From NCBI GenBank assembly GCA_008690995.1, contig VRMN01000013.1, forward strand, positions 310,001 to 374,000: a DNA stretch of 64,000 nucleotides, given 5' to 3'. The notes under the pieces were generated by a model. That model made no database searches. It was not told where the DNA came from and saw only the letters and a list, made by a program, of their open reading frames with translations. This document shows, in pieces, positions 1 to 34,153 of this stretch (positions are counted from its first letter, which is position 1; the number at the start of each line of letters is the position of its first letter). The position numbers and the translations under genes are program-made. This DNA is from Porphyridium purpureum (taxonomy: Eukaryota).

Positions 1-1063
1 ATTGTCCATCGACAACTGCAGGCATGCATCGGCTACTCGGCGTTACCAGAGGTGCTGTACGATTCGAAGCACATTAAGGGGTTTTCCAATGTGATGAATG
101 AGCTTAACCGCAGCGCACAATATGCACCGCGTAAATCAGTCCACTTGCACACGCTGATGTTCTTTCGGCACAAGGCGATGCGACAGCAAGCGCGCACTGC
201 GCGCATGCAGAGAATAGCCTGGTAGGTTTGATCTCCACAGCCAGACTGGAGGGAATTCTGTACTTGGATGAGAAGCGCACGCAACGTCTCGCGCACGGTG
301 GCCATTCGGTTCAGTACGAGCAGGGTAGTGAATCAATGTCATGCAGACGGTTGACGTGATAGTGTCAGTCGACAAGGTTCCTGACCGTGAAGGCCGCGTC
401 GAGTTCCAGTTTGCATAACCTGAGAATGGCTAATCAAGTAATGGGTTTCGCGCCGGGCTGTGCTTGCAGTGATATTAGTTTGTGTCTCTCTGTCACGGGC
501 CTGGCTTTTGACTTGTTTCGCAACGCAAAACTCAGTGATTGATGCTGTTTCAGCGGCCTTCCTGCCGAAGCAGCTCTCTTCTTTTGCCTGAGGACCAGCT
601 GTCTCTCGGCGTCGGCATGACATGAGACTTCCTACTTCTTAAGTACTTCACGCTGCACAATTCGTATTCGATCTGCCTCTTGTCGCAAATTAGAACCCAC
701 CTGTGCGTCCGACACTATCTGTGAAAATGAATCGCTGCCCTCTTCGCTTCCATCAAACCTTGTTTCGATTTTTCTCTTGCAGACATGACTACGAGAGCAT
801 GTTTAGTACACAGCAGCGCGGTGTTGCTTCTTAGAATGCACGTGGGCGAGTCTGCGTGTGTGCGAAAGTGCGTTCAAACACGCTAGAATACAGGGACTCT
901 GCGCACGTGGAGTGTGCGCTTGCGTCACCCACCGTTTCTAACAGAGAAACCCGGTGCACGCCAGTCGATCTGACAGTCCAATCAAGTGCCATCTAACGCG
1001 CGTGAAGGCAACGGAAAGAGAGGGCCTTCTTCCTGAAGAACGTCGCACGATATATCGCCGAGG

Positions 1064-4000
1064 ATGCCGAAAACCAAGTACACGCACAAGCACTCGAAAG
1101 AAAAGCGGCCCCAGAGGTACCGAAAATATGCTCAACATACAAGAGACGTACATGAAGCGGGACGGTCAAGACGCGGCGACGTACATTCAGCGCTGCCAGC
1201 ACCCAGCTCGACATCACGGTCGGGTGAAGCAGCGCTTGCGTTGGTCACGGAACCACAGCGTGTCGCTTGTGTACATTGCGGAATAAGGGGTTCACACGAT
1301 GGGCCATATGAATCTATTGTGGCGGAACGGCACGAATCTGGTCTATGCCCCCATGAAGCTACACTATCAGACGATGGCTCCGCTCCAGCACCCTTATCAG
1401 GCGCCCGTAGTGCGCTTCTACGGGACGCAGATACATTCCAACAGAGAACAGGGCATGGTCCAAGTTGTATGACCGGACCGGTAGCTCGAATTGGTAGTAC
1501 AAACGAACGAAGAACAATGGATGCAGACAACACTTTCGCTGCACGATCTGACGACACAATGGAAATATTCGAGTATCCACAAGAAAATTCCCGTCCTAAT
1601 TCTGACGAAGAGGATTACTTGCCCGAGCTGCCCGAATCTGAAGACGAATTTCAGGCACCTGAAGAAGCAATGAGCGACGACATACGCTTATTTAACGCCA
1701 TTGCGAATCAGCGGACGACGGAGTTTGAACGAGCACTTGCCTCGGTGCCGGATGCAACGACTTATGCGGAGCGTCATGTTCTTCGAAGGCAGAGCGCAGA
1801 CAATTTCTGCCGGGAGATAGAGCTGGCGTGGACAGAAAGTATTCCTGATAGTGCTCGTCAAGGTAATTTTGCTGCAAATATGACTGCGGCTGATACAGAA
1901 CAAATCTGCGGGAATGCAGATCTAAGCTTTCTTGAGCTTGAGCTCACGAAATTTCGTATCGAGATTGAGCAGTGTCTGCGCCAGTCAAGTGGTTTCATCT
2001 CACGTCATGTACATAATACCTTGTTCAAAACGATGCAGCAAATACTTGCAGTCGTTTTACATTACAGAGGAGTTGGTCGGACAACGAGCCAGATAGAAGT
2101 CCACGCACAGGGTGGGCGAGCAACGATTCCGGCAGCGAACACGGACCGCGCACGCATCGGCAGAGAGAGCGCGGAAAACATCACAGAGGCATGTAGAGCT
2201 CTTTTCAGTGCCAACATCAGCACGGCCCTTCATCGGCAGAAGATTTTCATTCCAGGGATTGCGATCCAACAAACACGAATCCCTTTCGGGCGCAATCTAA
2301 AAAGATACCGACCAGAAGGCTTCACAACCGAAATCGCATATCGTGACGCAACCTCTCTGGTTATACGGGACGTGAAACATATCATGCAGATGTACGGGGC
2401 AGACGCATTCCAAATCACGCGTCTAAATTGCGAACTCGGCGCGAACCAGCCACCTGCATGGGTATCTGCTCAAGAAGCATATGACCAGCGTGGCACGGAA
2501 AGGACCGCAAGAGGCGCCCGCCATAGGCTGGCACGTGCACACGTGGAGGAGACAATACGTAAAATGCAAGAGTTCAAGGATCGTCCGGTTGAGGATTTTC
2601 TTCACGACTTTGCCGGAACTGACAGCGCAGTGGCAGGGCAAATGCAGGGACCGGGAATGCAGACGGCAGGTGCGAACGAAAGCGTTGCCAGTTCACCTTT
2701 CGAAGGCTCTGCGCCCGCCGAGAGCGAATCCTTCCGCCACGCTCAAGATGCTTGGTACCTGCGACATGTTTACTCGCGCGTCCTCGAGCATTCATATTTT
2801 AGAGACGAGCGCAACCCGCCCCCACTTATCATCCCAGTGGCCATTTACGCAGACGGTGCGCATATGCACAAAAATGCGCTGCATGAACTGACGCCAATTT
2901 CAATTTCTATCATTCATAGAATGAAGTTTGAACACAATGGAGATCATCGTCTTCCCATGACTGTAGCATGCATGCCGGATGGGACCTTGAACGAATGGCA
3001 GACATTGGACAGTATACGGATGCAGAGCTCAACACAGGCGAGGGCTACAGGCAGAGACATGCCTCAGAACGTTATGAAAGAGTTCCGCAAGTCCATGTAC
3101 CACGGCATCTTTGCCTTTCTTTTCGGTGACTGGTTGCGCGGTGCATGGCACGCTGGGATGCCCTTCTTTTTTGAGCTGTCCGCGCACGGTAAGAGGTGGA
3201 CGTGCATCCCCACGATCTACAATCTTGGCATGGATATGCCAATGGTTGCGCGTCTGTCTTTCACACGTCTTTCAAGACCGAAGGACCAAAAAATGCCATG
3301 TCAGCAGTGCGAAGCCGCTGGTGGCGGTCAGCGGGAGCAACGGCAGGAAGCAAGGCCTGTCGAAAATCAGTCTAGCCAGCAACTGCAAGAGCTGGAGAGA
3401 GCGCATGATCGGAGAGACCGCCCGGATCTGGCTGGCCAGACTATCTGTCGAAAGCGGCCTCGGAACTCAGACCAAGACTACTGGACGTTGTACAACGGTT
3501 TAAACGGACTTCGCTCCGGGTTTCGCTTCGAAGCAGAGACCATCCACGCCATTGAGGTAAATGACATTGTTGCACTTGATGAAATGTCCGTAGACAGACC
3601 GGGTTCTCCTTTGTTCAAGGGTCTCGACGCGTTCCACCCTTGGGGCATTTTTCTCTTTACGTGTGCAGACGCAATGCACGCTTTCAAGAAGCTGCTGTTC
3701 CGCGACTGGGTAACCGTGGGCTTGGAAATGCTGTTGTTGTGTCACAAAGCGAAGCAGGTTGGGCCCGCGTGCGAACAGGAGGAAGAGCATGACTGGTCGG
3801 ATGATAGCCTTATACACGCGTCTTCGGCTCAGACGTCTCGAGTACGTGCTGTGAGCGTGCGCCAGGCCGAAAACACCGCACGCAACCGGTCTGAAAAGGT
3901 AACACACTCCATGTTGGACTCGGCGGCTGGTCGATGGATTAAAATTGAGGCTGTTCGAATGCAGCAAGATCTCACAACAAGAGGACACAACCAATTCCAA

Positions 4001-5584
4001 ATTCCAATGCGCGCCGTACCAGTGACGGATGAGGTCGGAAAAATTGTCGAGAACAAGTATTCTCTCAGCATCTTGTTACGTGTTCTAGTTATCCTTGCGT
4101 CTGGACACACACGTTGCTCAATGGACGGGCGCGTGCTGTCAGGCTGGATTGGGGTCTGCGTTGCCAGCTTAGGCGCGTATCGTTACCTGTACTTGAAGTG
4201 CCCCGGTAAAATGGACATGTACAATGCAGAGTTTTTCTTATCCAGGGTTAGCAAGTGTATGAACAGCATCCGGCAGGAGGGTCCGCAATTTGCAAGGGCT
4301 GTCGGTGATCGACCGAAGTACCATGCGATTCTCCACTTGGCCACAATGGTGCAGTTGCTCGGACGTCAGCGTTTATTTGACGTCTGTGGCGGAGAGTCTC
4401 TGATGAAGTACCTGCGCCGCATCTTTGATCGCCTTCCGGCTCGAAACCTGAATGTGCGCCGTGATCTTGCGCATAAAACAATACTGCAAACTTGCGAAAC
4501 CGATGAAGCGTTTTCATATGCGATTTCTCTGCTTGAGCGTCGAAAAGAAAAGACCGGAAATGGGCTACGCGGTGAATGCACAGGAGAACCGAGCAGTTCG
4601 GCCCAGCAGGCAAACAATACAGGATGTACGCCGAGCGTGCGCGAACACTACGTTTTCTTCTTGACTGGCGACATCCGCACGGTTCTAGACAAAACACAAC
4701 GACGCACAAATGCTGCATCAAACACGCTGACTAGCCACCTATCACTTGATGTGGAGGGTGTGTTCTCATATGTGACATCCAATTTCGATACACGTCCGGA
4801 CGGTTGCTTCATTCAGAGTCTTTCGCGAGGTACGATATGTACCCGTGACCGCGTTGCATTTGCCAGCGATATTCTCGACGCACTGCAGCATGCGTCTCCT
4901 CGGGTGCATTTGGGCGTGCGAGATTTCTTGGAGCGCTCACGCAGGGCTCCAATCATGTTGACGCAGGCTTTCGTACTCCGGAAGTTCAAAGAAGGATGTC
5001 GAACCCAAGTTATGGATCAGATAGCACCTCTGCTTGATGCAGACGCAAACAATCAGGCAGCTGGTTACGAAGAGGACGTTTCGGCTGGACGTACAGAGGC
5101 TCTGCACGACATTTTTGTCTGCTCGCCTACGTATATGGGGCGTCCGCGATACGATTTCATTCAGTATGTCTCTGAGAACGGCTCAAACGATACTCCACGG
5201 TTTGGCGAACTCGTCCTGCTCGCCAACCTGAGTGGAACACGTGGAGTTGCGTTCATCTGTCCATTGGAAACAGAATCGTTCTGCCGAGAACGAAACGCAG
5301 GTGCCGTCTGTCCGTGCCAGCAGATCGCGCAAGTGTTCATACATAGCAAGAGGCGCACGAGAGCGCATGAAATCAACAGGGAACATACACTTCATGATGC
5401 GTGCAATGATTATGGTATCGATTCGCAGAAGCGCAGGTTCCTGATCTGTATATCTGTGGAGTCTATCATTCAGAAGGTCACCGCATTCATGGATGTATCA
5501 CAAAGCCACACATGTCTGCCTCTGGAACAAAAGTACTACATCGTAAGCCCTAATTTATGCGAAGGTGTTGAAACGTACGCGTAG
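1064..5584 (+). CDS. Plavaka / CACTA(CMC)-like DDE transposase, 1506 aa (real start may be the ATG at 1517)
   Basis: Motifs in the order expected for Plavaka/EnSpm-type transposases: IIPVAIYADG...LTPISISI (~2830-2910), GMDMP (~3225), CxxC (MPCQQC), ADAMH (~3665), PKYHAILH...LG...GGES (~4310-4400) and a C-terminal RYDFI...FGELVLL. The ORF is uninterrupted. Confidence 0.75.
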   Translation: MPKTKYTHKHSKEKRPQRYRKYAQHTRDVHEAGRSRRGDVHSALPAPSSTSRSGEAALALVTEPQRVACVHCGIRGSHDGPYESIVAERHESGLCPHEATLSDDGSAPAPLSGARSALLRDADTFQQRTGHGPSCMTGPVARIGSTNERRTMDADNTFAARSDDTMEIFEYPQENSRPNSDEEDYLPELPESEDEFQAPEEAMSDDIRLFNAIANQRTTEFERALASVPDATTYAERHVLRRQSADNFCREIELAWTESIPDSARQGNFAANMTAADTEQICGNADLSFLELELTKFRIEIEQCLRQSSGFISRHVHNTLFKTMQQILAVVLHYRGVGRTTSQIEVHAQGGRATIPAANTDRARIGRESAENITEACRALFSANISTALHRQKIFIPGIAIQQTRIPFGRNLKRYRPEGFTTEIAYRDATSLVIRDVKHIMQMYGADAFQITRLNCELGANQPPAWVSAQEAYDQRGTERTARGARHRLARAHVEETIRKMQEFKDRPVEDFLHDFAGTDSAVAGQMQGPGMQTAGANESVASSPFEGSAPAESESFRHAQDAWYLRHVYSRVLEHSYFRDERNPPPLIIPVAIYADGAHMHKNALHELTPISISIIHRMKFEHNGDHRLPMTVACMPDGTLNEWQTLDSIRMQSSTQARATGRDMPQNVMKEFRKSMYHGIFAFLFGDWLRGAWHAGMPFFFELSAHGKRWTCIPTIYNLGMDMPMVARLSFTRLSRPKDQKMPCQQCEAAGGGQREQRQEARPVENQSSQQLQELERAHDRRDRPDLAGQTICRKRPRNSDQDYWTLYNGLNGLRSGFRFEAETIHAIEVNDIVALDEMSVDRPGSPLFKGLDAFHPWGIFLFTCADAMHAFKKLLFRDWVTVGLEMLLLCHKAKQVGPACEQEEEHDWSDDSLIHASSAQTSRVRAVSVRQAENTARNRSEKVTHSMLDSAAGRWIKIEAVRMQQDLTTRGHNQFQIPMRAVPVTDEVGKIVENKYSLSILLRVLVILASGHTRCSMDGRVLSGWIGVCVASLGAYRYLYLKCPGKMDMYNAEFFLSRVSKCMNSIRQEGPQFARAVGDRPKYHAILHLATMVQLLGRQRLFDVCGGESLMKYLRRIFDRLPARNLNVRRDLAHKTILQTCETDEAFSYAISLLERRKEKTGNGLRGECTGEPSSSAQQANNTGCTPSVREHYVFFLTGDIRTVLDKTQRRTNAASNTLTSHLSLDVEGVFSYVTSNFDTRPDGCFIQSLSRGTICTRDRVAFASDILDALQHASPRVHLGVRDFLERSRRAPIMLTQAFVLRKFKEGCRTQVMDQIAPLLDADANNQAAGYEEDVSAGRTEALHDIFVCSPTYMGRPRYDFIQYVSENGSNDTPRFGELVLLANLSGTRGVAFICPLETESFCRERNAGAVCPCQQIAQVFIHSKRRTRAHEINREHTLHDACNDYGIDSQKRRFLICISVESIIQKVTAFMDVSQSHTCLPLEQKYYIVSPNLCEGVETYA

Positions 5585-8190: not shown

Positions 8191-8991
8191 CGTACGAACA
8201 GCCCCAAAACAATACCTCGTTGCTCTCCTCTCGCGCGCGCACACACACACAACGACACACCCAAACACACGCTGCAGCACGTGCGAATGTGATACCAATT
8301 TTGAGATGCGTTTGAACTGGTGGACCTGTTGAAAGCCAAACGACAAACGAATGAAGACTCAAGACTAGAACCTATACCCTCAGGGCCACCGGCTATCGGT
8401 ATCCGATAAGGCGTGCCATAAAGTGCTGCGAACGTTTGCTACTGTCAGTCTGCGGCGCGAACGCGAAGACACTGCGCGTCCGTGGAGATAAAAGGCCTTC
8501 GCATGCAGCTTACTTGGTGCGGTCAACTGTGCTGTTACGATGAACGACACGCGTCAGCAGAGTGAGACGTTTGAACGCACGAAGCATACGACCTCGCAAT
8601 ATTTCAAGCATCAGGCTAAAAAGACAGGTGCGGCAAACGAATTCAACCCTTCAGATTCCAGCTTGCTCCAGATTTTGCACAGCTCAGTACAAATGTGAAA
8701 AGATGCTGGGTAATGTAGCCCTGACATCGGTATTATTGCCAAGAACACTTTTAATGCAAGCATTGGTCGCACGTGCTCAAACCATAATATGATGATAACC
8801 GATTCGGCCGATAGTCTTCATGATACGCTCTCAACTTTTTTAATGTCATTGCAACGGATTTAATACATAATTAAATACATTTGCTGAAGTGACTTCAACT
8901 GTACCGTCAACAATTCATCGTAACCCTTGAGTAACCCTGATATTGTAGGTTTATAACACATTACCTTGTACATTAAGGTTTAGCGCATCCA

Positions 8992-11900
8992 ATGTTTGAA
9001 CTGCACGCCATGTTGCTCGCCGTTGAAAGACAGATGGCGCGACATGCAAACGCAGCCGTCGAGGGCGCAGCGCTGCTCACGCGCGCGCGGGGAAATCCGG
9101 GCGATTACCGTCACTCCCACCGATCAGCACAAGCACGCACGACCTTCCGCGGAGCATGTTGGAAATGCGGGCGCGAGGGCCACACTAGGCGGAATTGTCC
9201 GCAAAACACGGACAAGGGTGGGCATGGAACAGATGGCTCCTCTCCAGTCGGAAGCCTTGGAGCAGCGTGCTTCGCTCTGATGACGAAGTCATACGCGGAC
9301 GCCGCCCGTGCGCATGTGCTTACCAAGACGCAGCCAACGAAATCAACGATTCCGGACGCTCGCTGGATAATTGACTCCGGGGCGTCGAGACACATGACAG
9401 CAAATCGAAACCTTCTTGAGAACATAAGAGCGTGTTCGGAACGCATACGAGTGGCAGACGACCGAGAGGTGTCGGCGTCAGCGGTAGGGGACGCTTGGGT
9501 TTCTAATGTGTTGCTTTCCAATGTACTCTTCGTCCCCGGACTCGCACACAGTCTCATATCTGTTCCTGCGCTCACGGCAGAAGGAGCAAGGGTCAAATTT
9601 GAGCATGACCGCTGCTGCGTCGAAGGCAAAAATGTCAACTGGAAACTGGAAGGAAAGCTGCAAGGTGGACTGTACGCGCTTCGTTCGAGTACCGCTCAAA
9701 CCCGCGCAAAGCTCGAGCACCAAAGGCTGTGTCACCCATCTGATGAATCATTTTGTGACACTTGCGTAAGAGCAAAAGCCGCACGACGCAGCTATCCGGC
9801 ATCAAGCCAGCGAGCAGAGAAACCCCTTGAGCTCGTTCACTCCGACTTGCTCACGATAACACCGCAAGGATTCCGAGGTGAGCGATACGTGGTTACGCTG
9901 CTGGACGAAGCAACTGGGTTGGCGGGTTGCTTCCCGATACGACACAAAAGTGAAACGCTCACCGCTCTGAAAAGCATGGTGCGCGCAATGGAAGCCATGT
10001 GCGGGCATAGCGTTCGGGCGCTTCGCACGGACAAAGGTACTGAGTACGTTAACGCACCCACTCGAGCGTGGGCCGATGCGTCAGGAATACGCCTTGAATC
10101 TGGACCTCCGTTCGTGCCGCAGATGAACGGAAGCGCGGAACGCTTCAATCGAACACTACTCGAGCGAGTCCGTGCGGTCGTACTGGCGAAGGGACTGAAC
10201 AAACATTTGTGGCCGGAATTGGCCCCGGCAGTCTGTTACGTTCTCAATCGAAGCCCCAATACACGAGGAACAGTTCCTATCGTGGCCTGTGGAAAATCGG
10301 GCGATTTGGACCACTTACGTGTACTCGGTTCTCGCGCATATGTTTACGAAAGGGGCCCAGACAAGCTCGACGCCCGAGCTCGCGCAGGTATCCTGGTCGG
10401 CTACGGTGAAAGACACAAAGTGTACAGAATCTTGCTGAATGGAACACAAACAGTTGTCGAGGCAACGAATGTGAGAATAATAGAGGAAGACCAGGCACAT
10501 GAGCTGGAGGCGACGCACGCCGAGACGGAAACAGCGACCGGACTTGTACACAACAACGGACCAGATGTACCAAGATTACTGCACGAATCCGGCGGAGACA
10601 CAGCTGACAATACCGGTCTGGCCAGCGAATGCCGACAAGTCACGACGGAAGAGCATGCCTGGACGCTTGATGAGGATGAGGCGATGGCCAATTCGCTCAT
10701 CTCCAATGGGTGGAACTTCGAGAGAGCCGCGGAACACGATGATCTGCGTCGGAGGTCACCTCTGGAGATCCTCCAGCGAGCACGTGATCTTGGCCTCACC
10801 GAACAGAACTTTCGCGAAATGCTGTACGTGAATGAGAGCGAAGAAGACGCTGGAGCACAACGCGGACGCAGTGCGAGCGAAGAGCAAGGTTTGACGCACA
10901 CGATGACGCCACGATATCAGCATGAACGAGGCGAACCAGTGCAGCAGGACTCGCCGCCACCCGCGCCGAGGCGTTCAGAACGTCTCCGGCGACCACCCGC
11001 GCGTTTTTGGAACAGCCCGGAAGATGCGCACTTATCTGTCGTGATGGCTACGGAGCCAACTCCGTGCGCCTATGTGACACGGTTAATCACGCAGAAGGAA
11101 GAGCTTGAAACTATGGAGGCAAAGGAGGCAATCAAGAAGGAATTGGGCGCCATGATCAGCATGTCCGTATTCGACCCAGACTCCGTCATCGAATATGACG
11201 AGGCTCGAAAACATATCGGTGCGCAATTTGTACGAGGCAAACTAATCGTATCTGAGAAATTCGTGGAGCAGGACGCTAATCGGCGAGTTCTGAAAGCTCG
11301 GCTTGTAGCACAAGGATGCCTCGTCTACGACTGCAATGGACATCTCGTGCGAGACAATACATTCCAGTACGAAAAGCCCATCGGGTTGCGATCAGCCAGA
11401 ATCGCCATTGCGCATGGAAGGATCGCAGGAGATTTGGCAACGTTCGACGTAGACTCTGCGTATCTTTCGACGGAACTGAAGGGGCCGAAAACGTTCCTGG
11501 AATTGCCAATGGAAGCACGCCCTGAGTCGTGGGGAATTCGCTTCGCTCGACCCGTCGTCCCACTGATTAAAGCGCTATATGGGTTGCCGCGGTCAGGCGC
11601 TGACTTTGGGGCGGATGCAAGGCAGAAGATTATCAAGCAAGGGTGGGCTCAGGCATCCGGAGATATGAACATGTACTTTAAAGCTTTCGGATGCGCGAAG
11701 GTCCTCATGGCTCTTTACGTGGACGACGGTCTGCTTGCGGGCGACCCGGAGGCAGTCGACAAGGCCATTCTGGAGATCTGCGCCATCTTCAAAATATCCA
11801 AAGCAATTAAGAGAATGTCGAAGGGTGGAAACGTTACCTTCCTGGGTATGACGGTAGACGCGAGCCCGGACGCATGGTCATTGCACAGTAACGGCTATTC

Positions 11901-13062
11901 GACATTAATACTGAACAACGCGCTTCCCAAACTTGGGTATCGATTCGAAAATGGGAGCTGGGTGTGTCGCAAAGCAAAAACACCGCTCAGTGATGTCCAG
12001 GCAAGCTGTGAGACCCAGCGCTCATCAGGAACCGTTGCTTGTGAGCCATGGATTCGCACTACTGTCGGCCAGCTCATGTGGCTTGCAAGAGCTGCCAGGC
12101 CTGATCTTGCCCACGCCGCTGCGTGGGTGGCGCGGTACGTCGACGCTTGGGACGACCGCGCTTCGTCGGCGCTCGACCGAGTACTGCGATACCTGTTGTG
12201 GCACAAAAACGCTAGCGTTGTGTATCCGCGCCCACCGGAGGCAGACAAAAACGGTCTACTCTCATTTCGACTGGAGGTATTTTGTGACGCAGATTTCGCG
12301 GGATGTCTGAGTACTCGACGCTCGACTACAGGCTTTGTGGTTTTTGCCCGATCGGGGGCGCTTGTGTATTTGTTGGAGTGGCACTCTAGCCGGCAGCGAT
12401 CATGCAGCACAAGCACAACTGAAGCTGAGCTTGCGGCAATGGCTAGTTCACTGAAGATTGGTTTAATGCCTGCCTGGTTGATGCAAGAAGATCTGATGCC
12501 ACCAAATGACAAAAGAGGTCCAATGCGCGCAATCTTGCGCTGCGATAATGAGGCTGCGATTGCATGCGTGAGGAGAGGGTGGTCAGATAAGCTACTGCAT
12601 ATGTCAAAAACACATGGAGTCGAAGTCGCGTGGATCCACGAAGTTACCGAGTTAGCAGGGCTGGCGTTACTGGTGAGGATTGATACAAAGGCGAACACTG
12701 CGGATATGTTTACCAAGGCTTTAAGCGCTGACAAGTTCCTCCGACATCGAGACCAGGTTGTGCAGGTGGCTGCTGCCAGCGAGGGGGCGTGTGAAGATAT
12801 CACTGTACACAGCCACCTTATGCAGGAGCCGGAGCACGTGGGGTCGCGAACCGCGACGTGTCCTGCGGATGGCGCAAAAGGCGGAAAGGGCGTGACGACC
12901 CCTTGCCGTGCTGGCAGGGCGTCGCAACCCGTCCGGGCTGCCGTGCAATTACTCTCGGGGACAAGCACGTCCGCACATGCAGCGCGTGTTGCCTTCACCT
13001 GCCCTGCAGGGCACACCGTCGCATTATATAAAGAGCGCCTCGCCCCACGATTGCATGCGTAG
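8992..13062 (+). CDS. Ty1/copia polyprotein (end of Gag with zinc knuckle, PR, IN, RT, RNase H), 5'-truncated
   Basis: CWKCGREGHTRRNC knuckle; WIIDSGASRHM protease; HQRLCH..CDTC plus a D,D35E integrase (SD..TDKGTEY..QMNGSAER); RT motifs KARLVAQG, LYGLPRSG and YVDD; RNase H motifs DADFAG, EAEL, CDN and ADMFTK. Confidence 0.95.
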   Translation: MFELHAMLLAVERQMARHANAAVEGAALLTRARGNPGDYRHSHRSAQARTTFRGACWKCGREGHTRRNCPQNTDKGGHGTDGSSPVGSLGAACFALMTKSYADAARAHVLTKTQPTKSTIPDARWIIDSGASRHMTANRNLLENIRACSERIRVADDREVSASAVGDAWVSNVLLSNVLFVPGLAHSLISVPALTAEGARVKFEHDRCCVEGKNVNWKLEGKLQGGLYALRSSTAQTRAKLEHQRLCHPSDESFCDTCVRAKAARRSYPASSQRAEKPLELVHSDLLTITPQGFRGERYVVTLLDEATGLAGCFPIRHKSETLTALKSMVRAMEAMCGHSVRALRTDKGTEYVNAPTRAWADASGIRLESGPPFVPQMNGSAERFNRTLLERVRAVVLAKGLNKHLWPELAPAVCYVLNRSPNTRGTVPIVACGKSGDLDHLRVLGSRAYVYERGPDKLDARARAGILVGYGERHKVYRILLNGTQTVVEATNVRIIEEDQAHELEATHAETETATGLVHNNGPDVPRLLHESGGDTADNTGLASECRQVTTEEHAWTLDEDEAMANSLISNGWNFERAAEHDDLRRRSPLEILQRARDLGLTEQNFREMLYVNESEEDAGAQRGRSASEEQGLTHTMTPRYQHERGEPVQQDSPPPAPRRSERLRRPPARFWNSPEDAHLSVVMATEPTPCAYVTRLITQKEELETMEAKEAIKKELGAMISMSVFDPDSVIEYDEARKHIGAQFVRGKLIVSEKFVEQDANRRVLKARLVAQGCLVYDCNGHLVRDNTFQYEKPIGLRSARIAIAHGRIAGDLATFDVDSAYLSTELKGPKTFLELPMEARPESWGIRFARPVVPLIKALYGLPRSGADFGADARQKIIKQGWAQASGDMNMYFKAFGCAKVLMALYVDDGLLAGDPEAVDKAILEICAIFKISKAIKRMSKGGNVTFLGMTVDASPDAWSLHSNGYSTLILNNALPKLGYRFENGSWVCRKAKTPLSDVQASCETQRSSGTVACEPWIRTTVGQLMWLARAARPDLAHAAAWVARYVDAWDDRASSALDRVLRYLLWHKNASVVYPRPPEADKNGLLSFRLEVFCDADFAGCLSTRRSTTGFVVFARSGALVYLLEWHSSRQRSCSTSTTEAELAAMASSLKIGLMPAWLMQEDLMPPNDKRGPMRAILRCDNEAAIACVRRGWSDKLLHMSKTHGVEVAWIHEVTELAGLALLVRIDTKANTADMFTKALSADKFLRHRDQVVQVAAASEGACEDITVHSHLMQEPEHVGSRTATCPADGAKGGKGVTTPCRAGRASQPVRAAVQLLSGTSTSAHAARVAFTCPAGHTVALYKERLAPRLHA

Positions 13063-26528: not shown

Positions 26529-27210
26529 GCCTGCCTTTGGTCACCTGTGCGCCTCTTCTATTTGCTTCCGCCTACGGACCGAACCAGATGTGGCGCAAGC
26601 AGCGGCACGTACCTGCCCGTGCAAACCCCCGATGCGAATGTGTGTGCCTGTTGAGTCCCCTATCCGCCCTTCGTGCAGTTCTTTTCACCACAGTCCGTGC
26701 TGCCACAGCTGCTGCTGCTGTTGGTGGACGTGGATGTGGTGGTGTTGAGACGCGAGCTGGCCAGCTGAGCTTGATGCGCAGGCGCGCAGAGGGGCGAGTC
26801 GCGGAGGGCGCACGTTCCAACCCGTTGCAAACGCCGCACGCCCACCCCCCTCACCTCAGCCACAACCCCAGTACAACATACAGCGCGCATGGGATGTACG
26901 AAACGGGCCCGGAAAATGCGCCAGACCTCCCATTCTTCTCATTTTCAATCCACACACATGCGCGACCGCGCGGGGTAGAGACGGTGGTGGTGGAGATGGA
27001 GATAGCGTTGCAATCACCCTCACACCCACATACGAAATAACGCTGTTTGCATACGAACACATGCAGCTTGCACGCAAAAAGGGTACAGCCGTCTGGAAAT
27101 TTCCGGCGCCGCACACACCGCAGCGCGCATGCAAGCAGCATGGAAAAAGGGAGAACCCCCGCCAGGGCGTAACGGTTCACACCCGCACGGAAATAAACAC
27201 AGCACACGCG

Positions 27211-27400
27211 GTACACTGAGGGGTACACTGAGGGGTACACTGAGGGGTACACTGAGGGGTACACTGTTGTAGGGTGGAGTACACTGGTGTACGGTTGAGT
27301 ACGGTGGGGTACGGTTGAGTACGGTGGAGTACGGTGGAGTACAGTGAGTACGGTAGAGTACAGTGAGATACAGTGAGTACGGTGGAGTACAGTGAGATAC
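27211..27400. repeat. Composite minisatellite: GTACACTGAGGG x~4.5, then ~10-bp GAGTAC(G/A)GTG-type units
   Basis: Direct tandem repeats, nearly every unit containing GTAC. Confidence 0.9.
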
Positions 27401-28203
27401 AAACTTTAAATTCTCGCACGCTTGATGATGACAAGCGCACGAACCCGGATGACACAACCCTTCTCAGATGACCGAACCCCAGCAACACGACGCACACAGC
27501 ACAGAGAACACAACCACACGACGCACACAACACAGACGACGAATACCCGGGGCGTGGAAAATCCAACGTATAGGGCCTCTACTATTGCCCTTCGCGTCGG
27601 CACAGACAGCACCGGTCTCGACAGGGGCAGGGTGTCGTAACGGACAAAGCCGCCGTCTGCCTTCAGTGCTCCAAGAGCACCGAAACCCCCCAGACACGAT
27701 GTGCTGCTGGCTCTGCTACACAGGCTCAGCAAAAGGCCCTACGCCTTCCGACGACCACGCCCAGGCACCCGACACCAAAGAACAACTCTTCCTTTATTCT
27801 CTGTGTCCTACTCCCTTGCCTCTACTTCTTCCGCTCTCAAGAAATCCGGGGAACCGCACGGGCCCGCGCCCATTATATACCCCGCCGTCCTTGCTGTCCT
27901 TGACGCGGAAGGGAGAAATTATTTCTCCCAAAAGGCTGGGCTTTCCTCCGTTCGTTCCACGGAACGAAGCCACAGCCAGCCACGTCAGCAAGCGGCTCAA
28001 TGGGTGCCGGCCGGCCGCCAAGCGGCTCCTGCTTCCCTCGGACACGCGACTCCGGCTCCTCGGGGCGAAAGACAACAATGCACAAAACCAGAGGTACAGG
28101 GTAAAAAACCACGCGGGCGAAAAAGCCCCTGTACCTCAAACAATTCCGAGACGCCGTACCTCCGGGTGTACACCCAGGGCGTCTCTCGGACCGGAACACT
28201 TTT

Positions 28204-29000
28204 CGTGGAATTTTAGGGTTCCGCCCCGAGAGACGCCGTAGGGTTTTGAGTACAAAACCCTAGAAAGTTCTATGATGAAAGATTGTTCGAGAAGCGTGAT
28301 GATCTCGGACCTGCGAAATGTTTGTCATTGTCGTTTTGTGTGGCCTTGTGCAAAGGTCAAAGGCCGGCCGAAGCTTCTGGATTCGTTCTTGACGCGCCCT
28401 CCCGGCCATTTTCCGGATACGTGGCCGGCTGTGGTTGCGAGTTGTGGAACGAATCAAAACCTGTGGTGGAAATTCGTCCTGTTGGAGAAATTTGTTCTCC
28501 CGTCCTTGCTGGAAAGAGCAAGGACGAAGGGTATAAAAGGACGAAGGGGCAAGCTGGTTCCCAGGAATTTCCAGGTCAAGGTAGAAGAAGAGGTAAGGGC
28601 AAATAGAATAAAAAGAGAATTGGTTAGTTGGATTGAGGCAGTCGTTGGAAGACTTGGGTTGGATTTGCGGGAGAGGCACGCTAGCGTGTTGTGCGAGCGG
28701 ATATCGGTCTGGAGTGTTTTTAAAAAGGCAGCTGGGGTTTAAACGTACCTTCCATCACCCTTCACTTGTCAAGACCGGTCCACTCCCTCTCGTAGTCCCC
28801 TATAAGTTGAATTTTCTGTCCTCTCTTCCTTTCTAGCCACTTTTCTCTGATTGTCCTGCTTGTCCTTCCGTTCGTTTCGGTGTGTCGGTTCGTCGTCGGT
28901 TTGTCAGTTTCCGGGGTGTGGCGGTTTCCAGTTCCTGTTATCGGTGAAGCGGTCCGGTTTTGTTGATTCGGTTACAAAGCAGAAAGGGAGAAATTCCAAG
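28204..29000 (+). repeat. 5' LTR (797 bp; inner TGGAATTT...AAATTCCA at 28206-28998)
   Basis: Direct repeat of 33168-33964. The only mismatch I noticed is G28952 vs A33916. Confidence 0.97.
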
Positions 29001-29018
29001 TGGTATCATCGCCCGGTT
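29001..29018 (+). promoter_or_regulatory. Primer-binding site, probably initiator tRNA-Met
   Basis: TGGTATCATCGCCCGGTT directly after the 5' LTR; resembles the plant iMet PBS TGGTATCAGAGC. Confidence 0.8.
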
Positions 29019-29029
29019 GTTTGGAGAAA

Positions 29030-29977
29030 ATGGAAAGCCATGAAATGGAAATGAATGTCCCGCAGGAGAATGCGGCATGGATTGAGGCAGCTAATCAGCT
29101 GCATGCGCGCATTGCGGGACAGGAGATGATGATGGCACAAGTGCAGGAAGCGAATCGTAACCTCCATGAAATGATGCATGTTTTGTTGCGCCAGCAGACC
29201 GTGGCGTCTGGGTCTGGTGACAACGATCGTGCCATGGCCGCGTTAATTGGGCGCAGTTTGAGAAAGTTTGATGGTCAGCGTGACAAGCTCGTTGTCAATG
29301 AATGGCTGATGCGAATGAAGAGCGACCTGGATATCTGCATGCCCGCAGATGCTTTGGACTCGCAGAAAGTGATTGTTGCAAGTCGCTTTTTCGAGAGGGA
29401 CGCAGCGCTGCTTTGGGCAGCTCGTCCGGAGGAGCAGAGAAAGGGCCTTGCAGAGGCCGGATGGGATGCGTTCGCAAACTTCGTGCGCACAGCGTTTGAG
29501 CCGCCGCAGGCGCATTTGACAGCGCGCACCAATCTGTATCAGTTGAAGCAAGGGAAAATGACGGTCGCAGAATTTGAGCAGAATCTCAGGATGACAGCGT
29601 TATCAGTTGAAGATGTGACAGATGCAGAACTGAACACCATCTTCACGCTGGGCTTGAAGGAGAAACTGCGTATTGAGGTGGCCCGTCAGGACACAAGGAC
29701 CTTGGAAGAATCACTGAAAGTTGCGTTGGCAGCTGAGCAGGTTGCAAAGTTCGGAGGAGATATGAGTCAAGTGATCAAGAACTCGTCATCGACTCATAGC
29801 AGGGCGTTCTCGTCGCATTCTGGTAGCGCACCAATGGATTTGGGAGCCATGGACAAGCGGAAGTCTGGCAAGACCAAAGTGAAGTGTTACCATTGTGGAG
29901 AACGTGGACACATTAAGCCCAAATGCCCTAAATTGAAGGAGCGCTTGGCAGGTGGTCCGCCAGAGCCGGAAAACTAA
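29030..29977 (+). CDS. Gag (Ty3/gypsy-type capsid domain plus CCHC zinc knuckle)
   Basis: KFDG...EWL, AALLW, WDAF...F, LYQLKQGKMTVAEF, FTLGLK..LR, APMDLG and CYHCGERGHIKPKC. Confidence 0.9.
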   Translation: MESHEMEMNVPQENAAWIEAANQLHARIAGQEMMMAQVQEANRNLHEMMHVLLRQQTVASGSGDNDRAMAALIGRSLRKFDGQRDKLVVNEWLMRMKSDLDICMPADALDSQKVIVASRFFERDAALLWAARPEEQRKGLAEAGWDAFANFVRTAFEPPQAHLTARTNLYQLKQGKMTVAEFEQNLRMTALSVEDVTDAELNTIFTLGLKEKLRIEVARQDTRTLEESLKVALAAEQVAKFGGDMSQVIKNSSSTHSRAFSSHSGSAPMDLGAMDKRKSGKTKVKCYHCGERGHIKPKCPKLKERLAGGPPEPEN

Positions 29978-30029
29978 GACCTCGAGAGCCAAGACAGGAG
30001 GAGATCTCGAGGGGAATGGAGCCTCCTGT
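29968..30029 (+). promoter_or_regulatory. -1 programmed ribosomal frameshift signal (GGAAAAC plus H-type pseudoknot)
   Basis: Slippery G GAA AAC directly before the gag TAA. Stem 1 is CCTCGAGA (29980-87) / TCTCGAGG (30005-12). Stem 2 is ACAGGAGG (29994-30001) / CCTCCTGT (30022-29). Confidence 0.85.
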
Positions 30030-33000
30030 AATGGGTGTTGTGGAAGGTGTTGCGCACGAGGGTGCGAGGTCAAGGCTCTTCTACAAACATGGGAAAGTGA
30101 GTGGTTCAAAAATCGACTTCTTGATTGACAGTGGAGCGTCGCATAATTTCCTGGGGTCCCGATTCTTGGACGCAAGCGTAAAGTCCAGTTGCGATGAATG
30201 CATGGTCGAGCTTGCGGGAGGACAGAGAATGAAGGTGCACGGCCCCATTGTGCTTGCGGTGGACCTCGGTTTCTGGATAGGGAACGTCGAGTTTTATATC
30301 GGTCCCATTCGTATGGATGCCATCTTAGGGTGGAAATGGCTCAAGATGGTGAATCCTAAGATTGATTGGCAGAAGGGACTGATGGAAACGAGGCCCGAGG
30401 GGAAGGAAATATGCACGTTGGAAAATGTTGAAGAAGTGGTTCCCGAGCTTGACGGGAAAAATCAGAGCGTGGCTGCTTCGGAACACGAGTTGACTCACAT
30501 GCCTATGCAAAGAGACTGTGAGACGTGTGTCGTGGCGAAGATAAAGCGACGCCCGGCCCGAAGGCTGGAGAAAGATGTCAGTGCATTGTCATTCAATGAT
30601 GAAGTCGGAATTGACTTGGTGGAGCCTGGGCGAAATGTGAAGTCGGTAGATGGTTCAAAGTTTATTTTGACGCATATCGACAGAGCCACAGGATGGGTGA
30701 CATTGGCGGGGCTACGTGCGAAAACCCACACGGCGGTTGCGGACGCTTGGAAAAGTGTGCAAGCCGGGAGAGGATGGCCGAAGGTTTTGCGAACGGATGA
30801 TGGGAATGAGTTCAAGGGAGATGTGGGGAGACTGGTGCGTGAACACCTCATAAAGCACGAGGTGGGGATTCCGTACAGGCCAAACAGTCATGCTGAACAG
30901 GAGCGGTTTCACCACACGCTGAATCAGGGAATCCGTGCGAATCTTGTGCAGGCCGGACTCGGGAAGCGTTGGTTCATGCACGCCGCGCAGCATTTTGCGT
31001 TCATGACGAATAGACTTCACGTGGGCAGGAAGTCTGGAAAGACGCCGTTTGAATTACGACATGGTGAAAAATGGTCGCCGAGAAATCTTAGTTTGCCATT
31101 CGGGTGCAAGGTGGTCTACAAAGATGATCAGCCTGACAATAAGTATGCACCGCGAGGAAAAGTTGGCATTCTCGTCGGCGTTGGAGAGCATCCGATGGCA
31201 ATTTTGGTGCTTCCTCGGGATGACTGGACGAGTGAGACCCCAAAAGTAATTCGCACTCAGGATTTTAAGGCATTTACCCATGAGTTCCCTTTAAAGGGAA
31301 TTGAACGAGAGATGGTGAGCCTGAGCCAGCAGGAAGAGTTGCCAGAAGTGGACGAACCATCCGCGGTTGAAGCGGTGCAGGACTTGGATCGTCGTATCGA
31401 TGCTCTCAGAGCTAGAGAAGCGGAGCTTGAGAAAGAGATCGAGGCATTGAAAGTGAGAGTGGTTGACGAAGAACGGGCAGCAGGCACGGGTGGTCCAGTG
31501 ACGATCCCACAGTTGAACTTAACGACTTTGCTGAAAACTGGAGCGGCGTTGGCGTCTGAGCAAGGACGAGCCGCGATGGAAAAAGAAGTCAAATCCATGC
31601 TGAAATTTGGGGTATGGGATGAGAGTCCCTTGACGCTGGAGGAGGCCCGGAGGCAACCTGGTGCTCGTTTCGTACGCACACATTTCATTTTCGGTCTGAA
31701 ATTTGCTGAGATGCCGGAAGAATTTCGCAAGGTGAAGTGCCGCTTGGTGGCCGGGGGAAACAGGATATGGGGGTCCGATGGAGCTGCGACGAATGACATT
31801 TTTGATTATGAGACGCCTGCTGGTTTGTCAGCTATCCGAATGATAATAGCTGTGGCTGCAATTCTGGGCCTTCAGATTGTTAGTTTCGACATCAGCTCGG
31901 CATACCTCCATGCGGACCTGTCTGGGCCACCTACGTTTGCATACTTACCGCGTGAAATTTGTGATTCAAAAGACACAGTAGTCAGGCTGAGAAAGGCGCT
32001 GTATGGCTTGCCCAGGAGCGGCTCGGATTTCTCACAAGATGCTCGGAGGAGATTGCAAAAGTTCCAGTGGAAGCTCGTGCATGGTGAAAAGAATGTGTAC
32101 GTCCGGAGAAATGCTGCAAGTTCGTCAGTTGCGTTGTTGGCTCTGTACGTGGATGATGGTCTATTAGCCTGTCGAGAGGAGGAACGCCCAGGAATCATCG
32201 AAGAATTGAAACAAGAGTTTCTCATAGAAAAAGCACCAGAACTATTGACGGAAGGAGGATCCTTGAGATTCCTGGGGACGAGCATTTCCCTCAAAAATGG
32301 GAGCGTGAGTTTGGCGAATCAAGAGTATCAAGATGTGGTCATTCGGGAATTTGAGCAGGATATTAGACGCGTATTGCGTGCCGTGAAGTCACCATCTGAG
32401 AAGCTAGATGGCGAGGAAGTTCTGAATTATCAAGTCATCTGGAAGACTTTGAAAGTAAGAGAACACGTCGGGAGGCTGATGTGGCTCGCCAGAACGGTTC
32501 GACCTGATATTGCGTATGCAGTCGGTATGATTGCCCGGTACGTTGACAAGTGGAATGTGGCAGCAGAAAGGCTGCTCGTACGAGTCGTGCAGTATTTGAA
32601 AACACCTCGGGAAGCATTGGAGTATCACGTGTTGGGGAATCTCAAGGAAGGCATCAGAGGGGTGAACATTCTTGGATACACGGATGCTGACTTTGCTGGT
32701 TGTCCAGAGAGTCGTGTGTCGACTTCTGGAAGAGCAACGTACTTAGTTGCTGGAGATTACAAGTACCTAGTGGATTGGTCTTCAAGAAAGCAGCGTTTCG
32801 TGAGCTCGTCGACTTCAGAGTCGGAGCTGGCCGCCCTAGAGGAAACTGTGCAACTCTCGTTGTTTCCTGCATTGTCTTTCTTGCGAAGTATACGTGACGG
32901 AGAGTTCTCGGTGATTTTGATGTGTGACAATCAAGCTGTGATGCGAGCAATAGAGATGGGGTACTCGCCAAAGTTGCATCATATGGCGATAACCCGAGCA

Positions 33001-33180
33001 ACAGATTTGGCCTGGTTGCATCAGGTGTGCGAAAAGCAGAAACTTGTGAAACTGGCATTTGTGAAGACGGACGAAAATGTGGCGGACTTAATGACCAAGG
33101 CCTTATTTCCGGAGGGCCACATTAAGTGCTGGGAGAAGTTACGCGTCCCTCAGACCGGAAGGAGGAGCGTGGAATTTTAG
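29968..33180 (+). CDS. Pol (PR-IN-RT-RNase H) in the -1 frame relative to gag; stop codon lies inside the 3' LTR
   Basis: PR: FLIDSGASHNF...DAILGWKWL. IN: HELTH..CETC, DLVE, TDDGNEF, ERFH. RT: KCRLVAGG, LYGLPRSG, YVDD. RNase H: DADFAG, ESEL, CDN, ADLMTK. The frame is open from 29917 and the first ATG is at 30016. Confidence 0.95.
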   Translation, partial: GKLRPREPRQEEISRGMEPPVMGVVEGVAHEGARSRLFYKHGKVSGSKIDFLIDSGASHNFLGSRFLDASVKSSCDECMVELAGGQRMKVHGPIVLAVDLGFWIGNVEFYIGPIRMDAILGWKWLKMVNPKIDWQKGLMETRPEGKEICTLENVEEVVPELDGKNQSVAASEHELTHMPMQRDCETCVVAKIKRRPARRLEKDVSALSFNDEVGIDLVEPGRNVKSVDGSKFILTHIDRATGWVTLAGLRAKTHTAVADAWKSVQAGRGWPKVLRTDDGNEFKGDVGRLVREHLIKHEVGIPYRPNSHAEQERFHHTLNQGIRANLVQAGLGKRWFMHAAQHFAFMTNRLHVGRKSGKTPFELRHGEKWSPRNLSLPFGCKVVYKDDQPDNKYAPRGKVGILVGVGEHPMAILVLPRDDWTSETPKVIRTQDFKAFTHEFPLKGIEREMVSLSQQEELPEVDEPSAVEAVQDLDRRIDALRAREAELEKEIEALKVRVVDEERAAGTGGPVTIPQLNLTTLLKTGAALASEQGRAAMEKEVKSMLKFGVWDESPLTLEEARRQPGARFVRTHFIFGLKFAEMPEEFRKVKCRLVAGGNRIWGSDGAATNDIFDYETPAGLSAIRMIIAVAAILGLQIVSFDISSAYLHADLSGPPTFAYLPREICDSKDTVVRLRKALYGLPRSGSDFSQDARRRLQKFQWKLVHGEKNVYVRRNAASSSVALLALYVDDGLLACREEERPGIIEELKQEFLIEKAPELLTEGGSLRFLGTSISLKNGSVSLANQEYQDVVIREFEQDIRRVLRAVKSPSEKLDGEEVLNYQVIWKTLKVREHVGRLMWLARTVRPDIAYAVGMIARYVDKWNVAAERLLVRVVQYLKTPREALEYHVLGNLKEGIRGVNILGYTDADFAGCPESRVSTSGRATYLVAGDYKYLVDWSSRKQRFVSSSTSESELAALEETVQLSLFPALSFLRSIRDGEFSVILMCDNQAVMRAIEMGYSPKLHHMAITRATDLAWLHQVCEKQKLVKLAFVKTDENVADLMTKALFPEGHIKCWEKLRVPQTGRRSVEF
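33157..33167 (+). promoter_or_regulatory. Polypurine tract GGAAGGAGGAG
   Basis: Directly 5' of the 3' LTR. Confidence 0.9.
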
Positions 33181-33964
33181 GGTTCCGCCCCGAGAGACGC
33201 CGTAGGGTTTTGAGTACAAAACCCTAGAAAGTTCTATGATGAAAGATTGTTCGAGAAGCGTGATGATCTCGGACCTGCGAAATGTTTGTCATTGTCGTTT
33301 TGTGTGGCCTTGTGCAAAGGTCAAAGGCCGGCCGAAGCTTCTGGATTCGTTCTTGACGCGCCCTCCCGGCCATTTTCCGGATACGTGGCCGGCTGTGGTT
33401 GCGAGTTGTGGAACGAATCAAAACCTGTGGTGGAAATTCGTCCTGTTGGAGAAATTTGTTCTCCCGTCCTTGCTGGAAAGAGCAAGGACGAAGGGTATAA
33501 AAGGACGAAGGGGCAAGCTGGTTCCCAGGAATTTCCAGGTCAAGGTAGAAGAAGAGGTAAGGGCAAATAGAATAAAAAGAGAATTGGTTAGTTGGATTGA
33601 GGCAGTCGTTGGAAGACTTGGGTTGGATTTGCGGGAGAGGCACGCTAGCGTGTTGTGCGAGCGGATATCGGTCTGGAGTGTTTTTAAAAAGGCAGCTGGG
33701 GTTTAAACGTACCTTCCATCACCCTTCACTTGTCAAGACCGGTCCACTCCCTCTCGTAGTCCCCTATAAGTTGAATTTTCTGTCCTCTCTTCCTTTCTAG
33801 CCACTTTTCTCTGATTGTCCTGCTTGTCCTTCCGTTCGTTTCGGTGTGTCGGTTCGTCGTCGGTTTGTCAGTTTCCGGGGTGTGGCGGTTTCCAGTTCCT
33901 GTTATCGGTGAAGCGATCCGGTTTTGTTGATTCGGTTACAAAGCAGAAAGGGAGAAATTCCAAG
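33168..33964 (+). repeat. 3' LTR (797 bp)
   Basis: Direct repeat of 28204-29000, directly after the PPT. Confidence 0.97.
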
Positions 33965-34153
33965 CTTTTAATCCATGACAAAGGGTACACTAGGATGTAT
34001 TAAAAAAAGAGTTTAAAAAAGAAGGAATAATTAATGCGGTGGATGGGAGTTTGAGCGGGTGCGCCACGAGCGGGACAAGGGGTGGTGCGCGAGGGGGGAT
34101 GGGGTGGAGTGGGCCGTGGCCATGGCGCGGTGGGCTGGTTGAAAGCGGCTGGT

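Follow-up and report, generated by a model that had tools for sequence, protein, structure and literature searches.

A retrotransposon family of the red alga Porphyridium purpureum joined to its target two bases outside TG...CA

Almost all integrases of retroviruses and retrotransposons use ends with a terminal CA. Within the window analysed here, a stretch of 64,000 nucleotides from the red alga Porphyridium purpureum, lies an LTR retrotransposon whose repeated unit runs past its TG...CA on both sides. The locus raises the question of which bases were joined to the target, whether the same bases are joined at other insertions, and what kind of integrase would use such ends.

Ends and target-site duplication of the family A element

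The element, assigned here to family A, has its 5' LTR at 28204..29000 and its 3' LTR at 33168..33964 (both on the plus strand); each is 797 nt long and there is one mismatch between them, so the insertion is recent. Both LTRs start with CG-TGGAATTT and end with AAATTCCA-AG, and the 797-nt repeat bounded by CG-TGG...CCA-AG that a sequence-only reading had described is thus borne out. To place the ends we compared the flanks in 33 combinations, made up of 11 symmetric offsets and a target-site duplication (TSD) length of 4, 5 or 6, and a perfect match was found only at offset 2 with 5 bp. The duplicated sequence is CTTTT, at 28199..28203 on the left and 33965..33969 on the right (plus strand), which are the TSD copies proposed earlier. 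This offset test places both LTRs and the right TSD, and the 5' LTR is also delimited by contigs that span it exactly. In the TG...CA register the flanks are TTTCG and AGCTT and match at none of five bases, as had been noted, and a TG...CA boundary for family A was rejected on that count. In the local flanking DNA the chance of a random 5-mer match is 0.0014 and the dinucleotides CG and AG have frequencies of 0.096 and 0.064, which by hand multiplication gives a joint chance of about 9e-6 for one register.

The primer sites leave no room between themselves and this longer unit, again in agreement with the earlier description. The PBS, TGGTATCATCGC at 29001..29012 (plus strand), directly follows the 5' LTR; its 12 nt are common to a sister family, family B, and its placement draws on a loose contig end at 27403 in sequencing run X5. 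The purine tract (PPT) at 33157..33167 (plus strand) directly precedes the 3' LTR, and the same 11 bases adjoin the family B LTR.

An older solo LTR and junctions at other loci

The family A element sits inside an older, inverted solo LTR of family B, which was absent from the earlier reading. The main part of this LTR occupies 27404..28203 on the minus strand, with its U5 end ...TTTAA-AG at 27404, and its first 8 nt (CA-TGGATT) were displaced by the family A insertion to 33970..33977 (minus strand), giving 808 nt in all; the left CTTTT of family A corresponds to positions 9-13 of this solo LTR on the minus strand. Its identity with the family A LTR is 56%, at an alignment score of 284, against 55 for the best of 200 shuffles and 37 for the best of 278 window segments, and where family B gene models contain LTR-derived sequence, it matches them at 91-96%. 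Its ends, CA-TGG...TTTAA-AG, align with those of family A, and a perfect ACAAA duplication surrounds it at 27399..27403 and 33978..33982 (plus strand), at one of nine offsets and in the same register as in family A. The solo LTR is thus a second, independent insertion in that register. There is no CA two bases inside its U5 end, either in the window or in contigs linked to family B internal sequence, so that at this end CA cannot be the joined end.

Three minor observations concern this LTR. The family A element was inserted nine bases into its start and in opposite orientation, which may be chance or may reflect targeting of related LTR ends. A short tandem array of 10-12-bp units (27210-27401) adjoins its U5 end. 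Contig depth over 27430-28200 is very high in X8 and X13, runs whose type is unrecorded, and could reflect either RNA or many copies.

Junctions at other loci were read from the assembled contigs of six of 24 listed public sequencing runs, which come from four studies and may all represent one strain. Contigs of 797 nt span exactly 28204-29000 in X1 and X3, and in X3 an internal contig overlaps the 797-nt LTR contig by 30 nt on each side. One family A copy at another locus has the left flank ACACC before CG (X1, X3 and X8), a second left flank ends in A (X8, read from a mixed consensus of two contigs), and a right flank reads GAACG after AG (X5). All three of the listed family A junctions at other loci therefore keep CG or AG, an outcome with a chance of about 6e-4 (calculated by hand) were these dinucleotides flanking DNA, and none of the loose ends listed (23 of 37 and 19 of 33) lies at TG or CA. 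Each of these junctions shows one side of an insertion, and the left and right flanks do not combine to a TSD (ACACC on the left, GAACG on the right); the two TSD pairs seen both lie within the window. The contigs of most runs show two or three differences from both LTRs of the window element, at 28343, 28399 and 28413 and the equivalent positions of the 3' LTR, which makes the copy in the window a minor variant of family A.

The second TSD pair and the three junctions at other loci, all in the same register, make the position of the joined ends a family trait; in what could be read, the feature is genuine and holds throughout the family. The sequence-only reading had named an outcome that would count against it, TSDs directly beside TG...CA and variable flanking dinucleotides in other copies, which would make CTTTT a coincidence or a one-off; what we found instead was the second pair and the three of three listed junctions that retain CG or AG. 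The window element is the single full-length copy readable at both ends, and this is what speaks for a one-off aberrant or integrase-independent insertion, or for a chance match of the 5-mers. We give that account hardly any credence, as the register recurs at the second TSD pair and at three further junctions, and in yeast, according to one study (PMC2939329), earlier insertions made without integrase never gave 5-bp duplications; a one-off aberrant insertion was rejected because the register is repeated. Canonical chemistry has also to be weighed, in which two bases are removed, the 3'-CA is joined and host repair retains the 2-nt 5' overhangs at both ends. The TG and CA of family A do lie exactly two bases inside, but loops would have to be kept on opposite strands, at both ends and in every insertion seen, and the lack of a CA at the family B U5 end largely refutes the idea, which we consider very improbable.

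Intact family B elements show where the native ends of that family lie. The same 11-nt purine tract abuts CA-TGG in X3, X5 and X13, a contig in X8 stops at the CA of CA-TGG, and the PBS abuts AG in X5, so that family B carries CA...AG as its native ends, which did not arise by decay. Family A joins CCAAG and CCACG, and family B joins TAAAG and CCATG; all four ends have A at position -3 and G at -1. The earlier description, a TSD two bases outside TG...CA, holds for family A and fails for family B, where TAA-AG at U5 contains no CA, so a joined end of the form A-N-G-3' describes the two families better.

One set of flanks counts against a C...G rule at the U5 end of family B. The DNA-level right flanks of this family (TTTGT, TCCTT and TTTAT) all three begin with T, a base that makes up 17.7% of flanking DNA, and they also fit a U5 end of AGT, its T derived from the terminal A of the tRNA, with a 4-bp TSD; the solo LTR in the window can likewise be read as AGT plus TTGT/TTGT. 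A strict C...G rule would then apply to family A only, for which this reading is compatible with blunt joining. We judge it unlikely. The 5-bp reading of the solo LTR is equally perfect, the right flanks of family A start with C and G, and the integrase cores of the two families are 81% identical, which would make a different stagger between them improbable. In addition, the gene model of another family B copy (P0213), which runs out of the LTR as ...REFK-GEV, has a G following the terminal AG, barring a spurious intron at that point.

Coding region and integrase

The gag gene (29030..29977, plus strand) is of Ty3/gypsy type, with matches to Retrotrans_gag (E 4.6e-9) and Ty3_capsid (E 1.3e-8) and a zinc knuckle. 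The pol frame (29932..33180, plus strand) lies in the -1 frame, encodes protease, integrase, reverse transcriptase (RT) and RNase H in that order, and enters the 3' LTR with its last codons. A candidate -1 frameshift signal, a slippery-like heptamer before the gag stop followed by an 8-bp stem, is located at 29968..30012 (plus strand). The folding energy of the stem after the gag stop is no better than that of shuffles (z = -0.10), so that the argument for a -1 frameshift is the overlap of the frames.

All domains of pol are on the plus strand. The aspartic protease (30091..30336) is gypsy-type, matching Asp_protease_2 and gag-asp_proteas, both under the Pfam cut-offs, whereas the RT (31672..32355) is copia-type (RVT_2, E 1.7e-18); the RNase H has no Pfam match of its own and was assigned by position and sequence. 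The integrase region (30454..31311) has a compact HHCC motif, the residues D76, D115 and E150, and an SH3-like C-terminal part. Its predicted structure is an integrase fold (pLDDT 85.5), and the closest solved structure is that of Ty1 integrase (7z0h_W, E 7.8e-19), ahead of retroviral integrases. Thirty-four residues separate D115 from E150, and the catalytic Glu is followed by His, a position held by Asn in Ty1 and foamy virus. Since this spacing and the His are common to many relatives whose ends are unread, they are not yet attributable to the switch of ends.

Family A resembles Ty1/copia elements in its pol order, its copia-type RT, its Ty1-related DDE integrase and its 5-bp TSD. Its Gag and protease do not: no copia gag or Pol_BBD profile matched at E 0.1, and the TG...CA termini that are typical of Ty1/copia, with known exceptions, are absent from families A and B. 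Nor is it a Ty3/gypsy element, as the integrase does not follow RT-RNase H and the RT is not gypsy-type. With Ty3-type Gag and protease profiles joined to a copia-type pol, family A is copia by its pol core only and a non-canonical member of that group.

The Pol protein is 99-100% identical to proteins of the host, P. purpureum, in which the Pol clusters of families A and B have 16 and 17 members; the Pol of family B is about 70% identical to that of family A. A quick RT-RNase H tree, midpoint-rooted with no gypsy outgroup, grouped both families with other Porphyridium families in a divergent clade that stands away from canonical copia; its 33 rows were drawn from about 77, namely the 30 most similar plus named copia elements, with near-identical family members left out. 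Outside Porphyridium no relative was readable at the DNA level in two kinds of scan. A DNA-pattern scan gave no matches in metagenome contigs and one and four in viral and genome contigs, all of them short chance matches without pol homology, and a related-locus scan with the integrase alignment gave 33 viral and 129 metagenome pattern matches, none of which was confirmed. A homologue search for proteins longer than 1894 aa and a search for gene models that run across the end of the family B LTR each returned nothing (both are weak negatives), and no tRNA, including the initiator tRNA-Met that primes Ty1/copia elements, was found in the 64-kb window.

Several further Porphyridium gene models (P0003, P0038, P0041, P0046/P0227 and P0051) combine a Ty3/gypsy-type Gag and/or protease with an integrase in copia order that has a compact HHCC finger, and where an RT is present in these chimeric families it is copia-type. 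We found no paper on Ty3-Gag/copia-integrase chimeras in the literature searched. In P0003 (family B) and P0042 (another family) a Myb-like domain under the Pfam cut-off lies between integrase and RT and might target integration; it was not detected in family A.

Proposed joining reaction and known systems

We think it probable that the C...G ends at the visible junctions arise because the copia-type integrase takes a cDNA with blunt C...G ends and joins these uncut ends through the terminal 3'-G, without processing and with the usual 5-bp cut. With priming at the PBS and PPT, reverse transcription would yield a linear cDNA that starts with C and ends with G; the integrase would recognise A-N-G-3' at the cDNA ends, skip 3'-processing as Ty1 does, and make a normal 5-bp staggered cut. 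The proposal draws on the ends themselves, the two TSD pairs, the abutting primer sites, the register of the sister family and the intact DDE integrase, and the joining through a 3'-G that was suggested earlier agrees with the integrated strands, which do end in 3'-G. The abutting primer sites are also compatible with the removal of leftover primer bases, so that we infer, rather than observe, that the ends are unprocessed.

That removal is the core of a different account, in which one or two primer-derived bases remain on the cDNA, at U5 the last base of the tRNA and at U3 purines from the PPT, and are trimmed by the integrase back to the G. It predicts the same junctions as blunt joining. 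Some RNase H enzymes leave the terminal rA of the primer, and the extra U3 bases of Ty3 are purines, so that an abutting purine tract is no proof of a blunt end. Neither family A nor family B has a templated spacer at U5, however, and the closest solved integrase, that of Ty1, does not process its ends; we regard this trimming as possible but rather unlikely. More tentatively, the inner TG...CA of family A may be what is left of an ancestor with 2-nt spacers that it trimmed off, and family B may since have lost the CA at U5; a purine run, CG and then TG also occur in that order at the 3' end of the other copia-like element in the window, described below.

The premise of the sequence-only reading, that retroviral-type integrases always join a 3'-CA after trimming, was too strong; in the portions of the literature available to us, on which all comparisons below draw, Ty1 integrase joins blunt ends (PMC8487063), the Troyka elements end in CG...CG (PMC12440569) and errantiviruses end in AGT or AnT (PMC5408687). 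Ty1 of Saccharomyces cerevisiae shares with family A the 5-bp TSD and the integrase before RT (PMC8487063, PMC2939329), and blunt joining without 3'-processing is reported for Ty1 as it is inferred for family A. Ty1 integrase joins blunt, unprocessed cDNA ends but needs CA (PMC8487063, PMC2939329), and under physiological metal it rejects ends without CA (PMC8487063). Family A also differs from Ty1, with its TG...CA termini, in its C...G ends, its Ty3-type Gag and protease and its pol in the -1 frame.

Troyka elements likewise start with 5'-C and are joined through 3'-G, but their ends are palindromic (CGCCA...TGGCG), their TSD is 3 bp, their domain order is that of gypsy (PMC12440569), and they have a CX2CX8-10HX4C knuckle and animal hosts, whereas family A has an ordinary knuckle and a red algal host. 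With 5-bp TSDs, CG or CA...AG ends and an integrase before a copia-type RT, the present families are unlike Troyka, and membership was rejected on their termini (CGTGG...CCAAG and CATGG...TAAAG), the 5-bp TSD and the non-gypsy domain order. The errantiviruses, in the Drosophila gypsy, ZAM and Idefix groups, resemble them in having ends other than TG...CA family-wide, with processing stated to be unclear (PMC5408687), and differ in belonging to the gypsy superfamily, in their 3'-T ends and in their sequence-specific targets.

Land-plant non-TGCA copia elements (Tos17, AtRE1, TARE1, lotus families, Rosaceae TGTT and AACA) have non-canonical ends with mostly 5-bp TSDs and, like families A and B, are poorly handled by motif-based finders. 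Their substitutions fall within the four terminal bases and the last base is A or T; in the available parts of these sources none starts with C or ends with G. Plant surveys describe the first T as invariant (10.1101/137141, PMC9804982), with AACA as an exception (PMC5659011). Two GalEa-like copia elements, CoPorcru1/2, have been named from Porphyridium cruentum in a paper that also gives a shrimp gypsy consensus bordered by CT...AA (PMC3587641); the available part of PMC2774666 added nothing on ends. In the literature searched, the scope of which lay outside supplements, Repbase and most subscription journals, we found no copia element with C...G ends and no description of families A or B, and prior annotation may exist. 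Each half of the proposed mechanism has precedent; what appears to be new is a copia-type integrase that combines both, in two sister families that have lost the CA to different extents, CoPorcru1/2 being known to us by name only.

More tentatively, and with somewhat less confidence than in blunt joining itself, we suggest that this integrase lineage could be in mid-change, having stopped trimming and shifted from CA-3' to A-N-G-3', while the old CA decays, being still present in family A and gone from U5 in family B. A Troyka-like 3'-G chemistry would then have been reached independently, in an undescribed clade of algae and protists whose elements pair the pol core of copia with Gag and protease of Ty3/gypsy type. 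Families A and B are young, intact and present in many copies, and lend themselves to studying why the CA is so nearly invariant and by what route an integrase gives up processing; since P. purpureum can be cultured, both its cDNA ends and the activity of the enzyme are accessible to experiment. Annotation that relies on standard end motifs would put families with C...G ends in the wrong place or overlook them. A motif-based finder would either call the ends 2 nt too far in, so that the TSD goes unseen, or discard the element altogether, and algae and protists may therefore hold more such families than are annotated.

Two other open reading frames in the window deserve mention. A second copia-like ORF (8977-13062, plus strand; Pol_BBD, rve and RVT_2) falls in the same RT clade and has a copia-type protease. 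No LTR pair was found for it in the window, and its 3' end shows a purine run, CG and then TG near 12779-12795, the true ends of the element being unplaced. The other, a 1515-aa ORF at 1037-5584 (plus strand), has no Pfam match at E 0.1 and, we presume, resembles the transposase of a large DNA transposon.
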